From Desulfococcus sp. (GTDB taxonomy: Bacteria; Desulfobacterota; Desulfobacteria; Desulfobacterales; Desulfosalsimonadaceae), in NCBI GenBank assembly GCA_024641805.1, contig JAHECJ010000001.1, positions 1 through 29,151 of the forward strand: a stretch of 29,151 bases of DNA. Direction: 5' to 3'. Positions 8,704-19,062 of this stretch are shown piece after piece (position 1 is the first letter of the stretch; each line of letters opens with the position of its first letter). The translations under genes and the position numbers were made by a program. The notes under the pieces are model-generated. The model had not been told where the DNA came from. It searched no databases and saw nothing but the letters and a program-made list of their open reading frames with translations.

Positions 8704-9474
8704 ATGCTCCTGGTAGTAGATGTCGGCAACACCAATACGGTTCTCGGGATATTTGATGATGATCAGCTGATTTGCAACTGGCGGATCCGCTCAGCATCCC
8801 GAATTACGGAAGACGAATTTAACATTGTTATTTCAAACCTGTTTCAAAGCAAAAATATAAAACCGTCGGACATCCGCAAAACCATTATCTCCTGTGTGGT
8901 CCCTCCGATGATGAGGATTCTTGATGAATATTGCCGGAAATATCTGGGGCATGCCCCCGCCTGGATTGACGCCAAGTCCGTTCAAATGCCGATTCGATAT
9001 GACAATCCGGAAGAGGTCGGCGCAGACAGGCTGGTAAACGGCATCGCAGCTTATCATATATATCGGACGAGCCTGATTGTCATTGATTTCGGCACCGCTA
9101 CAACATTTGACGTCATCTCGGCCAAAGGGGAATATCTGGGAGGCGCCATTGCGCCGGGCATTGGCATTGCCGCAGAAGCTTTGTTTAAACACGCATCCAA
9201 GCTACCCCGGGTGGAGCTGTTCAATCCGCCGAAAACCGTCATTGGCAAAAATACCGTTCACAGCATGAAATCCGGAATTATCTATGGATATTCGGAAATG
9301 GTGGATGGGATGGTTCGCCGTATCAAACAGGAACTTCCGTAGGAACCTGAGCCAAAAGTGATTGCGACAGGAGGATTGGCGCCATTAATGCAGAATATTT
9401 CAAATACCATTGAATCCGTGGAAATGGGATTAACGCTGGAAGGGTTGAAAATTATCAGTAAACAGATGAAGTGA
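8704..9474 (+). CDS. coaX: Type III pantothenate kinase, interrupted by an in-frame TAG at 9340-9342 (codon 213); 256 aa if read through
   Basis: DVGNTNT, GADRL and DFGTATT motifs before the TAG. After it the same frame reads EPEPKVIATGGLAPLMQNISNTIESVEMGLTLEGLKIISKQMK-TGA, the conserved CoaX C-terminus. Confidence 0.92.
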
Positions 9475-10378: not shown

Positions 10379-11551
10379 TTAATACCCGGATCTTTTCCCA
10401 TAGCCCATATCAATTTCAAGCTTGTCAATTTTGCTGGTTGATTCGCCTCTGGAACTTTTTACCAAATCAATCCCCCGTCCGACGATGGATCTGCGCGACG
10501 CATATCCAACGGCGGTTTCTTCTGAAATCAGGCCTTTTTCAAATAAACCGACAATAAAATTATCAAAGGTGGTCCATCCGAACGCGGTGGATGCTTCCAT
10601 CATGTCATAATAGGTTTTTCCTTCTGATTCCCCGTGCAAAATAGAATCCTTCACCCGCAGGCTGGTTCCAAGAATCTCAAAGGCGGCTGCCCGCCCGCCG
10701 CCGATTTTTGGCAAAAGGCGCTGACAGACCACCCACCGCAGTGTATCTGCCAGACGGATCCGAATCTGGTTTTCCTCTTCGGAGGAAAACATTCCCAGAA
10801 TACGGTTAATGGTTTGCCCCGCGTCAACGGTATGCAGGGTGGTGAAAACCAGATGACCGGTTTCGGCCGCGGATAAACCGATTTCAACGGTTTCCCGATC
10901 CCTCATTTCACCCACCAGGATGACTTTCGGCGCCTGTCTTAGTGCGGCCCTCAGTCCGGTTGCAAAAGAACTGAAATCTTTTCCCAGTTCGCGCTGGTTG
11001 AACGTGGATTTTTTATGGGTATGAATATATTCGACCGGATCTTCAAGAGTGACAATATGCACGGACTTTTCTTTGTTGATTTCAGATAATAGCGCTGCCA
11101 GCGAAGTGGTTTTACCGGTTCCGGTGGCTCCGGTAAAAATGACAATTCCGTTTCTTTCCCGGGCTATTTTATAAAAAATTTCCGGAAGCCCCATCTCTTT
11201 AACGGTCGGCACTTTTGTTTCAAGCTGGCGAAGGACAATTGAATAGTTTCCGGACTGGGAAAAAACATTGACCCTGAACCTCGCTTTGCCCGGCAGGGAG
11301 TAAGACAAATCACAGGAACCTTCTTTAAGCAATGTATCAATCAGTCGCCGGTCGCGTCCAATCAGGTTTAATGCAATCACTTCCGTTTGAAAAGGAGTTA
11401 AAATTTTCAGGGGAGGTTTCATGTCTACGGGAGTCAGCTCACCGTAGGTTTCAACCTGCAGCGGCTTTCCCGAGGTAAAATTTAAGTCCGACACGCTTTC
11501 ATGGGAATCCAGCATTGCGGTTAAAATATAATCGGTTTCCGGCTTTTTCAT
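10379..11551 (-). CDS. pilU: PilT/PilU-family type IV pilus retraction ATPase (PilU-like paralog)
   Basis: Walker [47 protein letters not shown]; tandem with pilT. The pilU versus second pilT assignment is tentative. Confidence 0.85.
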   Translation of the reverse strand: MKKPETDYILTAMLDSHESVSDLNFTSGKPLQVETYGELTPVDMKPPLKILTPFQTEVIALNLIGRDRRLIDTLLKEGSCDLSYSLPGKARFRVNVFSQSGNYSIVLRQLETKVPTVKEMGLPEIFYKIARERNGIVIFTGATGTGKTTSLAALLSEINKEKSVHIVTLEDPVEYIHTHKKSTFNQRELGKDFSSFATGLRAALRQAPKVILVGEMRDRETVEIGLSAAETGHLVFTTLHTVDAGQTINRILGMFSSEEENQIRIRLADTLRWVVCQRLLPKIGGGRAAAFEILGTSLRVKDSILHGESEGKTYYDMMEASTAFGWTTFDNFIVGLFEKGLISEETAVGYASRRSIVGRGIDLVKSSRGESTSKIDKLEIDMGYGKRSGY

Positions 11552-11633: not shown

Positions 11634-12716
11634 CTATGCCTCGGTAAAATCAACAGGAGCCGATTTCAGCAAAGGCCTGAATCTCTGTTTGTCATTCGAC
11701 TTGTTGTAACTGTCTTCAGCGCTGATCCATCCCCTGTTATACAAATCCATGATGGCATCATCCAGCAGGATCATACCATATTTTTTCCCGGTCTGCATTG
11801 AAGAAGGCAGCTGATGCGTTTTGGACTCCCGGATCAGGTTCCTCACCGCCGGGGTGGCAATCAGTATTTCAAGCGCCGGACATCGCCCTTTTCGATCGAT
11901 CCGTTTGAATAATACCTGAGCAATAACCGCCCGGATACTGTCCGCCAGGCCGGACCGGACTTGCGCCTGCTGTTCCGCCGGAAACACTTCGACCATGCGG
12001 TCGACAGTTTTCATTGCACTTGACGTATGCAGTGTGGCAAAAACCAGATGACCTGTGGATGCCGCCTCAATGGCAAGAGACATTGTTTCCAGATCCCTCA
12101 TTTCGCCGACCAGGATGATGTCCGGATCCTATCGCAAGGCACCCCGCAAAGCCGCGCTGAAACTCTTTGTGTGAACGCCGATTTCCCGCTGATTGACAAT
12201 ACATCCCTGACTTTCATGCACGAATTCAATGGGGTCTTCAACCGTGATTATATGGTCCTTACGGGTTCGATTGGCTTCGTCAACAATTGCCGCAAGGGTT
12301 GTCGATTTTCCGCTACCCGTCGGGCCGGTGATAATTACCAGCCCCCTCGGCAGGGACGCCAGTTTTGAAATCACCTTTGGAAGTCCGAGCTGTTCACACC
12401 CCATGATATTGTTGGGAATCTGACGAAATACCGCCCCTACACCGTTTCTCTGCATGAAAAAATTTGAACGGTACCGGGCAAGACCTGGAATTTCATAACC
12501 GAAATCAACATCGCCGGTCTCTTCAAACAACTTGATTTTATCTTCAGGCGCAATTTCATAAACCATGCTGCGAAGTTCATCGTTATTCAATGGCTTATAC
12601 TTGATTCGCTCAATTTCTCCCCGAATCCTCAAAGCTGGTTGCTGCCCGGCCACCAGATGAAGGTCCGAAGCCCCTTGATCATTCATCAATTTAAAAAAGG
12701 CATCAATTTTTGCCAT
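11634..12716 (-). CDS. pilT: Type IV pilus retraction ATPase PilT, interrupted by an in-frame TAG at 12129-12131 (codon 196); 360 aa if read through
   Basis: [15 protein letters not shown] and TVEDPIEF precede [22 protein letters not shown], then [18 protein letters not shown] and C-terminal DFTEA. The two ORF-track pieces are one frame joined by 9 codons. Confidence 0.93.
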
Positions 12717-13334: not shown

Positions 13335-14189
13335 ATGAGTAAGCTTCACCATAAAATCGGGTTTATCGGCGCCGGCAATATGGGCCAGGCAATGATCGGC
13401 GCTTTGATAAAATCGAATTGTTGTGCGCCTTCCGACCTTTTTGTTTGCGATATCTCGAAAAAACAAACTGATATCCTGAAAGCAACCTACGGAATACAGG
13501 TATTATCTGACAATTCGGCAATTATTCAGACATGCGATGTCATCATTTTTGCCGTAAAACCGCAAATCGTCGACCCGGTTTTGTCTGAATTATCCACCGG
13601 AAAAGTTTTTAAACAACCGTCTGGAAAAAAAATTTTTATTTCCATTGCTGCCGGAACGCCTATTAAAAAATTTGAAGGCTATATATATGACGCCATCACA
13701 GACGATGGGAAAAAAAAAATGCCGATCCTGCGCGTTATGCCCAATACCCCATCGCTTGTTCTTTCCGGAATGTCCGGCCTCTGCGCAAATTCTTATGCCA
13801 CCGGCGAGGATATTCAAATCGCTAAAACAATCCTGACCGCAATGGGCAAAGTCATTGAATTTCGTGAAAGTGATATGGATGCCGTTACTGCTGTCTCAGG
13901 GTCCGGGCCCGCTTATTGCTTCTACCTTGTGGAAGCAATGGTCGAGGCGGCCATAAAGCTTGGCATCTCGCCGGGAAATGCGTCTGAAATGACTGCCGCG
14001 ACCCTGAAAGGATCGCTGATATTACTCGAGAATGAGAAAATTTCACCGCGGGAACTTCGCCGAAAGGTGACTTCACCGGGGGGAACCACAGAAGCGGCGT
14101 TAACCGTGCTGGAGGACAATTCCGTAAAACAAATTATAATTCAAGCTATTACCGCTGCAGCTCAAAGATCCAGAGAACTCCGTGGTTAA
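13335..14189 (+). CDS. proC: Pyrroline-5-carboxylate reductase
   Basis: GFIGAGNMG, AVKPQ, ISIAAG, RVMPNTP, TAVSGSGPAY and VTSPGGTT motifs. Confidence 0.98.
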   Translation: MSKLHHKIGFIGAGNMGQAMIGALIKSNCCAPSDLFVCDISKKQTDILKATYGIQVLSDNSAIIQTCDVIIFAVKPQIVDPVLSELSTGKVFKQPSGKKIFISIAAGTPIKKFEGYIYDAITDDGKKKMPILRVMPNTPSLVLSGMSGLCANSYATGEDIQIAKTILTAMGKVIEFRESDMDAVTAVSGSGPAYCFYLVEAMVEAAIKLGISPGNASEMTAATLKGSLILLENEKISPRELRRKVTSPGGTTEAALTVLEDNSVKQIIIQAITAAAQRSRELRG

Positions 14190-14243
14190 ACCTTTTTTCT
14201 AATTTTATTTGATTTATTTAAATTAGTAATTAACATTGTAACA

Positions 14244-14957
14244 ATGTTTACTCAAACCATATCATATTCAGCCGCCTTTATAGCCGGACTCCTCTCTTTC
14301 CTGATGCCTTGTGTTTTTCCTTTGATCCCGGCTTATTTTACATTTATCACAGGATATTCTCTGGATGAACTAACCCGGGACACCTCCGCGCAAATCCGGA
14401 AAAAAGTGTTCGTATCAACTCTTGCGTTTGTCTCCGGATTTTCGGTACTTTTTATTGCTTTAGGTGGTTTGGCTGCCAGTTTTGGGGGGCTTTTTGACCA
14501 GCATAAAGATATTATCCGAATTATTGGCGCGATTATCGTTATCATTTTGGGAATACATCTGACGGGTATTTTCCGGATTCGTTTTTTGGAAGTGGACAAA
14601 AGAGTTCACATTCAAAAAAAGCCGCTGCATTTTTTTGGAACTTTTATTGTCGGCATGGCTTTCGGCGCAGGGTGGAGTTCATGCACCGGCCCCATGCTCG
14701 GTTCCATTATTGCCATGGCCACCACGCAGGAAACCGTCTGGCAGGGTATGGCGCTCTTGTCGTTATACACGTTTGGGCTTGCGCTTCCGTTTTTAATTAT
14801 CTCAATTTTCATTAACTACCTGCTTGAGTTTATGAGGCGTGCGTCCAAAGCGATACGATATATTAATTCGGTGGCCGGCGTATTGCTTATTTTCGTGGGA
14901 ATTTTTCTATTGGGGTTTAATTATTTTAATACCTTATTTTATTCATTCATGCATTAA
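14244..14957 (+). CDS. ccdA: CcdA / DsbD-beta family transmembrane electron transporter
   Basis: Multi-TM protein with the two conserved Cys in FLMPCVFPLIP and WSSCTGPML; followed by a thioredoxin-fold gene. Confidence 0.88.
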   Translation: MFTQTISYSAAFIAGLLSFLMPCVFPLIPAYFTFITGYSLDELTRDTSAQIRKKVFVSTLAFVSGFSVLFIALGGLAASFGGLFDQHKDIIRIIGAIIVIILGIHLTGIFRIRFLEVDKRVHIQKKPLHFFGTFIVGMAFGAGWSSCTGPMLGSIIAMATTQETVWQGMALLSLYTFGLALPFLIISIFINYLLEFMRRASKAIRYINSVAGVLLIFVGIFLLGFNYFNTLFYSFMH

Positions 14958-16851: not shown

Positions 16852-16956
16852 CATATTTTTACTCGAACAAACATGAATGTGTAACAACCATTTTCAAATA
16901 TTTTTCCCCGCATTCTGCATAATTCTAAAATGTCTAACATGGGTAAAGGAATCGAA

Positions 16957-19062
16957 ATGTTTAATCAGATAAAAAAACGCAATGGCAGGGTGGATACTTT
17001 TGACTCTTCAAAAATTACAGCAGCGATCGCCAAGGCTGGAACAGCGACAGGCGAATTTGGTGATAAAGAAGCAAAAAAAATGACATTGCGCGTCTTGACC
17101 CTTGCCCAGGGAATGCATCTTTCCAATTGCCCTGAAGTCGAAGACATTCAGGATATTGTTGAAAGAGTATTACTGGATTCTCCTTACTACAAAACAGCCA
17201 AAGCCTATATCATCTACCGTGAACAACACGCTCAGATCAGAAAAATTACGACCAAAGCCCATGTCGAAATAGTAGAAAACTATGTACAGAAAATGGATTG
17301 GAAAATTAAAGAAAACAGTAATATGAGCTATTCATTGCAAGGCCTTAACAACTATATCTCTTCTGATATAACTGCGGAGTACTGGCTGAACAGAATTTAT
17401 CCTCCGGAAGTTCGGAATGCGCATAAAAATGGCGACCTTCATATCCATGACTTAAGTCTTTTGTCAATTTACTGCGTTGGCTGGGATCTCCAGGATCTGC
17501 TCACCGTCGGATTTATGGGGGTTCCCGGAAAAGTCGAAAGTGCCCCTCCGAGACATCTCAGATCCGCGCTGGGTCAAATCGTAAACTTTTTTTACACATT
17601 ACAGGGTGAGGCCGCGGGCGCGCAGGCGGTTTCCAATTTTGATACGCTGCTGGCACCATTTGTCCGCAAAGACAATCTTTCATACAAAGAGGTTAAGCAG
17701 GCTCTGCAAGAATTTGTTTTCAATATCAACATACCCACCCGGGTCGGATTCCAGACACCGTTTACCAATATTACGATGGACCTGAATGTACCGCGTACCC
17801 TTAAGGATGTACCGATAATCATCGGCGGCGAACATCAAAAAGAAACGTACGGTGATTTTCAGCATGAAATGGACATTATTAACAGTGCGTTTGCCGAAGT
17901 GATGATCGAAGGTGATGCCAAAGGACGCGTTTTTACCTTTCCCATTCCCACCTACAACATCACGGAAGATTTTGACTGGGAAAACCAGAACCTGGAAAAC
18001 ATCTGGAAAATGACGGGCAAGTATGGAATTCCATATTTTTCCAACTTTGTTAATTCCGATATGTCGCCGGAAGATGCGCGGTCCATGTGCTGCAGACTGC
18101 GCCTGGATAACCGCGAGCTTCAAAAAAGAGGTGGTGGACTTTTCGGGGCCAACCCACTTACCGGATCTATCGGCGTCGTGACGATCAACCTTCCGCGAAT
18201 CGGATATCTATCAAAGGATAAAACCGAATTTTTTGATCGGCTGAAATCCCAAACACATATTGCAAAAGAAAGCCTGACCATTAAACGAAAAGTCCTTGAA
18301 AAATTTACAGAACAGAATCTTTATCCGTATTCCAAATTTTATTTGCGAGGAATAAAAGAAAAAACAGGTACTTACTGGACAAATCATTTTTCAACCATCG
18401 GAATTATTGGAATGAATGAGGCTTGCCTGAATTTTATCGGAGAGGATATCGGCAGTCCTGCCGGCCATGCCTTTGCCGTTGAAGTTTTAGATTATCTGCG
18501 TCACTTGATGACACAAATTCAGGAGGAAACCGGAGAATTCTTCAATCTGGAAGCAACCCCCGGCGAAGGCACCGCGTTCCGGTTGGCAATGATTGATAAA
18601 AAACAGTATTCAGACATCCTTTGCGCAAATGATTCCTTTTTCAAAGAAGGTTCCGATCCCTTTTACACAAACTCAAGCCAGCTTCCGGTCAATTATACCG
18701 ACGATATTTTTGAAGCCCTTGAACTGCAGGATGATCTCCAGACAAAATATACCGGCGGAACCGTATTTCATATATTTCTCGGTGAAAAAGTGGACAGTAT
18801 TGAAGCCACCCGGAACCTGGTCAAAAAAATTACAAGTAATTTTAGGCTTCCATACTTCACGCTTTCACCCACATTCAGCGTCTGTTCAGGACACGGGTAC
18901 ATCACCGGACAACATGACCTCTGCCCGGACTGCAATGAGCCGGTTGAAGTATATTCCCGGATAGTCGGATATTTAAGACCCATCAGCCAATGGAACAATG
19001 GCAAGTTGTCAGAATTTAATATTCGGAAAACCTATGCCATGGCGAAAAGTTGTGCCGTATAA
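16957..19062 (+). CDS. nrdD: Anaerobic (class III) ribonucleoside-triphosphate reductase with N-terminal ATP cone
   Basis: IKKRNGRVDTFDSSKI ATP cone, SMCCRL finger loop, CxxC/CxxC zinc site and YSRIVGYLRP glycyl-radical motif. ATG 16957 chosen for its AAGGA SD (track start 16930). Confidence 0.97.
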   Translation: MFNQIKKRNGRVDTFDSSKITAAIAKAGTATGEFGDKEAKKMTLRVLTLAQGMHLSNCPEVEDIQDIVERVLLDSPYYKTAKAYIIYREQHAQIRKITTKAHVEIVENYVQKMDWKIKENSNMSYSLQGLNNYISSDITAEYWLNRIYPPEVRNAHKNGDLHIHDLSLLSIYCVGWDLQDLLTVGFMGVPGKVESAPPRHLRSALGQIVNFFYTLQGEAAGAQAVSNFDTLLAPFVRKDNLSYKEVKQALQEFVFNINIPTRVGFQTPFTNITMDLNVPRTLKDVPIIIGGEHQKETYGDFQHEMDIINSAFAEVMIEGDAKGRVFTFPIPTYNITEDFDWENQNLENIWKMTGKYGIPYFSNFVNSDMSPEDARSMCCRLRLDNRELQKRGGGLFGANPLTGSIGVVTINLPRIGYLSKDKTEFFDRLKSQTHIAKESLTIKRKVLEKFTEQNLYPYSKFYLRGIKEKTGTYWTNHFSTIGIIGMNEACLNFIGEDIGSPAGHAFAVEVLDYLRHLMTQIQEETGEFFNLEATPGEGTAFRLAMIDKKQYSDILCANDSFFKEGSDPFYTNSSQLPVNYTDDIFEALELQDDLQTKYTGGTVFHIFLGEKVDSIEATRNLVKKITSNFRLPYFTLSPTFSVCSGHGYITGQHDLCPDCNEPVEVYSRIVGYLRPISQWNNGKLSEFNIRKTYAMAKSCAV

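Follow-up and report, generated by a model that had tools for sequence, protein, structure and literature searches.

PilT, the ATPase that retracts the type IVa pilus, is recognised by a Walker A motif, an Asp box, a Walker B motif with the catalytic glutamate and a His box (PMC5065972). In-frame stops in genes of this kind can be compared with different known situations. In pilT nonsense pseudogenes of cultured bacteria the stop lies ahead of the catalytic motifs of a dispensable motility gene and paralogues are present, where UAG is decoded by way of pyrrolysine or by natural suppressor tRNAs an in-frame TAG stands in genes that are intact otherwise, and consensus errors in draft MAGs appear as isolated single-base lesions in conserved, even essential single-copy genes, along with indels in A/T runs and in fragmented bins. 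The pilT gene described here shares traits with each of these, and its stop, although present in the given sequence, is most likely not a real feature of the organism.

The gene is located on the minus strand (11634..12716) of the window, i.e., the whole stretch of 29,151 nucleotides that was analysed, which is an entire contig (C273) and the longest of the 605 contigs of a medium-quality assembly (3.16 Mb, 76.5% complete, 3.3% contaminated), whose nearest protein hits carry names that assign it to Desulfobacteraceae. From its frame, its match to TIGR01420 and its alignment to PDB entries it encodes a PilT-family type IVa pilus retraction ATPase of 360 codons, followed by its own TAG stop. A second, in-frame TAG is found at codon 196 (12129..12131, minus strand), where the frame and the orthologue alignment show that it replaces an invariant glutamate, encoded by GAA in relatives. 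Around this codon the minus strand reads GCC TTG CGA TAG GAT CCG GAC. It is the single internal stop in the frame from 12716 to 11634, all other codons being open, and the two listed ORFs, of 195 aa at 12129..12716 and of 155 aa at 11634..12101, share this frame. According to coordinates calculated from the frame, Walker A (GPTGSGKS, residues 131-138) lies at 12303..12326; the Walker B core (GEMRD, residues 204-208) was placed at 12093..12107 by the frame and the alignment to 3jvu and is absent from the 195-aa product, both motifs being on the minus strand. The first-pass annotation had placed the TAG at the E/Q of an R-E-D-P-D motif between Walker A and Walker B, which agrees with residues 131, 196 and 204, and the corresponding motif of the adjoining paralogue (10379..11551) also reads as it had described.

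When the stop is read as X, the full-length protein reaches 462.5 bits against TIGR01420, which models the PilT/PilU family (cut-off 319.1), and 462.3 bits in a genome-wide search of the MAG with the same model, so that family membership is supported by the score of the whole protein. All motifs are in place: Walker A begins at residue 131, EDPIE of the Asp box at 160 and GEMRD of Walker B at 204, and the His box follows at 221. The read-through protein aligns end to end with PilT of P. aeruginosa (3jvu/3jvv, E 8.7e-115), where the X faces a Glu, and over its full length with PilT4 of Geobacter (6ojx, E 7.9e-104). It further shares with known PilT proteins the AVRNLIRE motif and the tandem arrangement of pilT with pilT/U. 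However, the reading frame is interrupted as assembled, with a stop at codon 196 where all relatives have Glu, and the literal translation of 195 aa is without Walker B, the catalytic Glu and everything downstream.

The stop is private to this MAG. In an alignment of close orthologues, 119 in number, 84-97% identical and all 360 aa long, every one has Glu at position 196. Intact copies were also found in 27 related genomes, of which 12 belong to the same genus and none has the stop. The gene order proC - yggT - pilT - pilT/U is conserved in relatives as well. The closest known pilT sequences are 84% identical in DNA, with a dS of about 1.1-1.4, and against the nearest orthologues omega amounts to 0.016-0.018 in the part of the gene before the stop and to 0.014-0.021 in the part after it. 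Across 221 near-invariant columns the stop is the sole departure, and no further private residue was found in comparison with the 119 orthologues. Thus, neither a raised dN/dS nor additional lesions after the break, as would be typical for a decaying pseudogene, were detected in pilT. The uniform omega and the lack of any other private residue argue that strong constraint has acted on pilT until practically the present day.

These data bear directly on the possibility that the stop is a real, very recent nonsense allele, either in the whole population or in the majority strain. Such an allele would yield at most the fragment of 195 aa without Walker B, His box and C-terminal domain, and would leave retraction to four paralogues. 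It is established that loss of pilT is tolerated by other bacteria and frequent among them, and as pilT is dispensable, a true null of this gene alone keeps some probability. The assembly indeed contains four more PilT-family copies, all intact, two on C211, one on C505 and the adjoining gene, a PilT/PilU-family paralogue of 390 aa (10379..11551, minus strand; 352 bits on TIGR01420), and congeners carry the same set. Division of roles among PilT paralogues is known from Geobacter, which has four of them (PMC5065972). Nevertheless, no other PilT of this set is as well conserved as the interrupted gene, 27 of the relatives searched carry it intact, its omega is about 0.02, and nothing has decayed downstream of the stop. 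In contrast to the pilT nonsense pseudogenes of cultured bacteria, it shows no relaxed constraint and the same kind of lesion is found in essential genes of the same assembly, as described below. The first-pass annotation had named intact copies elsewhere together with decay of this one as speaking against a functional stop; four intact copies are there, but the decay is not. Taken with the lesions in essential genes, the lack of decay makes a genuine pilT null an unlikely explanation.

A second in-frame stop was found in the same window, 2.8 kb from pilT. The gene coaX, identified from its frame and its relatives as type III pantothenate kinase (8704..9474, plus strand), has an in-frame TAG at 9340-9342, after which the conserved C-terminus VIATGGLA continues in frame. 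In 28 relatives coaX is intact. The stop falls on a variable loop position, where A, R, L or S is found elsewhere. A search for a type I pantothenate kinase in the assembly gave no hit, and no pantothenate kinase other than coaX was detected. The motif TAGGAWCC is common to the stops of pilT (TAGGATCC) and coaX (TAGGAACC) and was considered as a methylation or systematic-error context, but this was rejected as the contexts of the further stops in ftsW, the nuoD-like gene and ftsZ are unrelated.

To take a census of broken genes in the whole assembly, non-overlapping longest ORFs were called on 2.6 Mb of G006, which is its closest congener, and compared with the MAG by tblastn. A total of 992 genes with matches of at least 60% identity, corresponding to 308,036 aa, were included. 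An all-ORF census at a length of at least 80 aa was discarded, since shadow frames align. Among the 992 genes five credible mid-gene stops were found in the MAG. In pilT a TAG corresponds to E (GAA) of G006, and in coaX a TAG corresponds to A (GCG). The other three are a TAG for S (TCG) in ftsW (C347:620, locus L135), a TAG for W (TGG) in the nuoD-like gene (C396:4649) and a TAA for E (GAA) at about residue 119 of ftsZ (C225:1002, locus L134). Apart from its stop, ftsZ of the MAG is 92% identical to the copy in G006. Both ftsZ and ftsW have one match each in the MAG, and in both cases it is the stop-bearing one. Null mutants of ftsZ, ftsW or a sole pantothenate kinase are not expected to be viable. 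With ftsZ and ftsW in single copy and coaX as the only pantothenate kinase hit, these stops are therefore either not encoded by the cells or not read as stops.

In addition to the stops, six frameshifts were detected in the MAG among the 992 genes. Five of these coincide with runs of 6-8 A/T and affect a Nif3-like gene, a CoA-transferase, bioF, pilB and a further gene (contigs C322, C385, C465, C284 and C260). Five more gene breaks are N-gaps (C422, C538, C306, C369, C281), and the runs of N inside genes indicate that the assembly was scaffolded. The direction of the change could be read for four of the base changes, and three of the four are G:C>T:A (GAR>TAG in pilT, GAA>TAA in ftsZ and TCG>TAG in ftsW), a class typical of oxidative damage artefacts. 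In the reverse test, G006 showed one TGA stop and three frameshift candidates; real pseudogenes thus occur at a low rate, which leaves some room for a true pilT null. However, the lesions in ftsZ, ftsW and coaX cannot be real nulls, and a common artefact is the simpler explanation.

Since isolated stops of the same kind occur in essential single-copy genes of the MAG, the TAG in pilT is most likely an assembly error. We regard it as probable that it is a base error in the consensus of this scaffolded MAG of 605 contigs and 76% completeness. The homopolymer indels, the N-gaps and the majority of G:C>T:A changes fit base errors in a scaffolded MAG of low depth. The simplest change would turn GAG into TAG on the coding strand by a G>T exchange at 12131. 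One cause may underlie all five stops, i.e., base errors or damage to the DNA that became fixed where read depth was low. The organism would then most likely make a normal PilT of 360 aa with Glu196, and the codon would regulate nothing. Besides a readthrough switch and a recent adaptive null, the first-pass annotation had listed an error, and this option is the best supported, since equally isolated stops interrupt ftsZ and ftsW, both in single copy, as well as the sole pantothenate kinase detected, and homopolymer frameshifts are present.

If it is an assembly error, the pilT stop is without biological meaning, but the genome is a species representative and gene-breaking errors in roughly 1% of the tested genes (11 lesions in 992) will spread as false pseudogenes. 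Therefore, isolated in-frame stops in medium-quality MAGs call for a check of essential single-copy genes in the same bin before recoding or regulation is claimed.

In some respects the stops differ from consensus errors of draft MAGs. They are not scattered but form two close pairs and a single one (G006 coordinates C40 and C18; L074, L085): coaX with pilT, and ftsW with ftsZ, which are about 6.7 kb apart in G006 coordinates. Under random placement two pairs within 7 kb have a probability of 0.0009, and the second pair given the first one of 0.024. The stops thus cluster in pairs beyond random expectation, for which no cause was found. In addition, TAG is favoured beyond a uniform error model: it accounts for four of the five stops (P 0.047 under uniform substitution), although P rises to 0.26 when the two window stops are left out. 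Dense local error in the contig was considered but not seen. Besides its stop, pilT has no private residue, and ten window genes carry 28 private residues in 1913 invariant columns, compared to 5-41 in eleven congeners, a mid-range count and no excess of private substitutions as base errors might have left, in a comparison of low power.

The other way to reconcile stops with essential genes is that they are read through. The first-pass annotation had proposed that the level of readthrough at the pilT stop could act as a switch for motility or adhesion, and had noted that the sequence following the TAG can fold. The complementary words GATCC and GGATC are both present, but the minimum-energy fold does not contain their pairing. 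The 83 nt from the stop onwards fold with -22.3 kcal/mol, compared to -22.8 +/- 3.4 for shuffled sequences (z +0.14), and 5-bp pairings like that of GATCC with GGATC occur at 49 of the 1023 positions in the pilT gene (5%). Programmed readthrough would be expected to show a conserved stop and a stimulatory RNA; the stop is conserved in 0 of 27 relatives and 0 of 119 orthologues, and the z-score of +0.14 gives no sign of such a structure.

A more general route would be an amber or ochre suppressor tRNA, or another route of UAG decoding, with its genes in the 24% of the genome that the assembly lacks, in which case readthrough of pilT could tune retraction. The five stops comprise TAG and TAA but no TGA, which is exactly the set that an ochre-type suppressor is known to cover. 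However, the lack of TGA among five events is not significant, being expected about 3 times in 10 under a uniform spectrum (TGA share 0.211). The stop-bearing genes are otherwise intact, as in known cases of UAG decoding, and include essential ones, and with only 27 tRNA genes recovered the tRNA set is incomplete. Among these 27 genes (ARAGORN) no CUA or UUA anticodon was found, and no match above the cut-off to PylS or PylD was obtained in 14 genomes of the genus, i.e., the MAG and 13 congeners, of which 8 are at least 90% complete.

The use of TAG is also ordinary. It ends 16.3% of long genes in the MAG and 16.2% in the closest congener G006, and the rates for TAA are likewise equal. Between in-frame adjacent open frames TAG was found in 36 of 235 cases, which equals its share as a stop and is no excess. 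Reassignment of TAG, for which depletion at gene ends, frequent occurrence inside genes and loss of RF1 would be expected, is thus not indicated, and RF1 (prfA) is present and intact. A broken RF1 as the cause of readthrough had been suggested by a flag of one TAA for prfA in the genome search (C197:516-1583), but this TAA precedes the start codon, and the candidate was rejected. The prfA case illustrates that stops flagged close to the ends of a match need a visual check.

Compared to known UAG decoding, the machinery was found neither in the genome nor in the genus, TAG terminates genes at an unaltered rate and the stops include a TAA. Moreover, the replaced residues differ (E, A, S, W and E), an RNA signal after the pilT stop is lacking, and homopolymer frameshifts and N-gaps are quality faults that no suppressor could rescue. 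Readthrough of the stops by a suppressor is therefore very improbable, and the proposed switch is unsupported, with a private stop, no RNA structure, ordinary TAG use, an intact RF1 and no tRNA-CUA, PylS or PylD detected. Natural stop-codon suppression in a free-living bacterium would be the consequence if the stops in ftsZ, ftsW and coaX were true, and only then would they be of interest. That five real TAG/TAA codons are tolerated via an unassembled ochre or amber suppressor tRNA, with stops drifting into essential genes of a free-living sediment Desulfobacteraceae, has in our view only the slightest chance of being correct.

Public data were searched for either allele at the pilT stop. An exact search of metagenome contigs with a 30-mer that spans the stop and has N in place of the variable base matched neither allele, and no record of the literal 195-aa product was found in public assemblies. 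Among sequencing runs none was found to contain the source, and a sediment run (X1) shares 8% of the words of the window. Its contigs on the window are conserved pieces of other organisms and one identical contig of 154 nt with a depth of 2 (12548-12701), and they offer nothing usable across 12129-12131. The X1 sediment may therefore harbour, at very low abundance, this population or one very close to it.

Two genes with possible breaks were noted in the congeners. In G006, which is of high quality, one gene (L059, about 13694-14558) carries a TGA and a frameshift candidate in comparison with the MAG copy (C594:11275-12150), and is probably a real pseudogene or a selenocysteine site combined with an alignment break. 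For the orthologue of the window gene 16930..19062 in another congener (G007:C116:16973-19084, L182) one in-frame TAA was reported.
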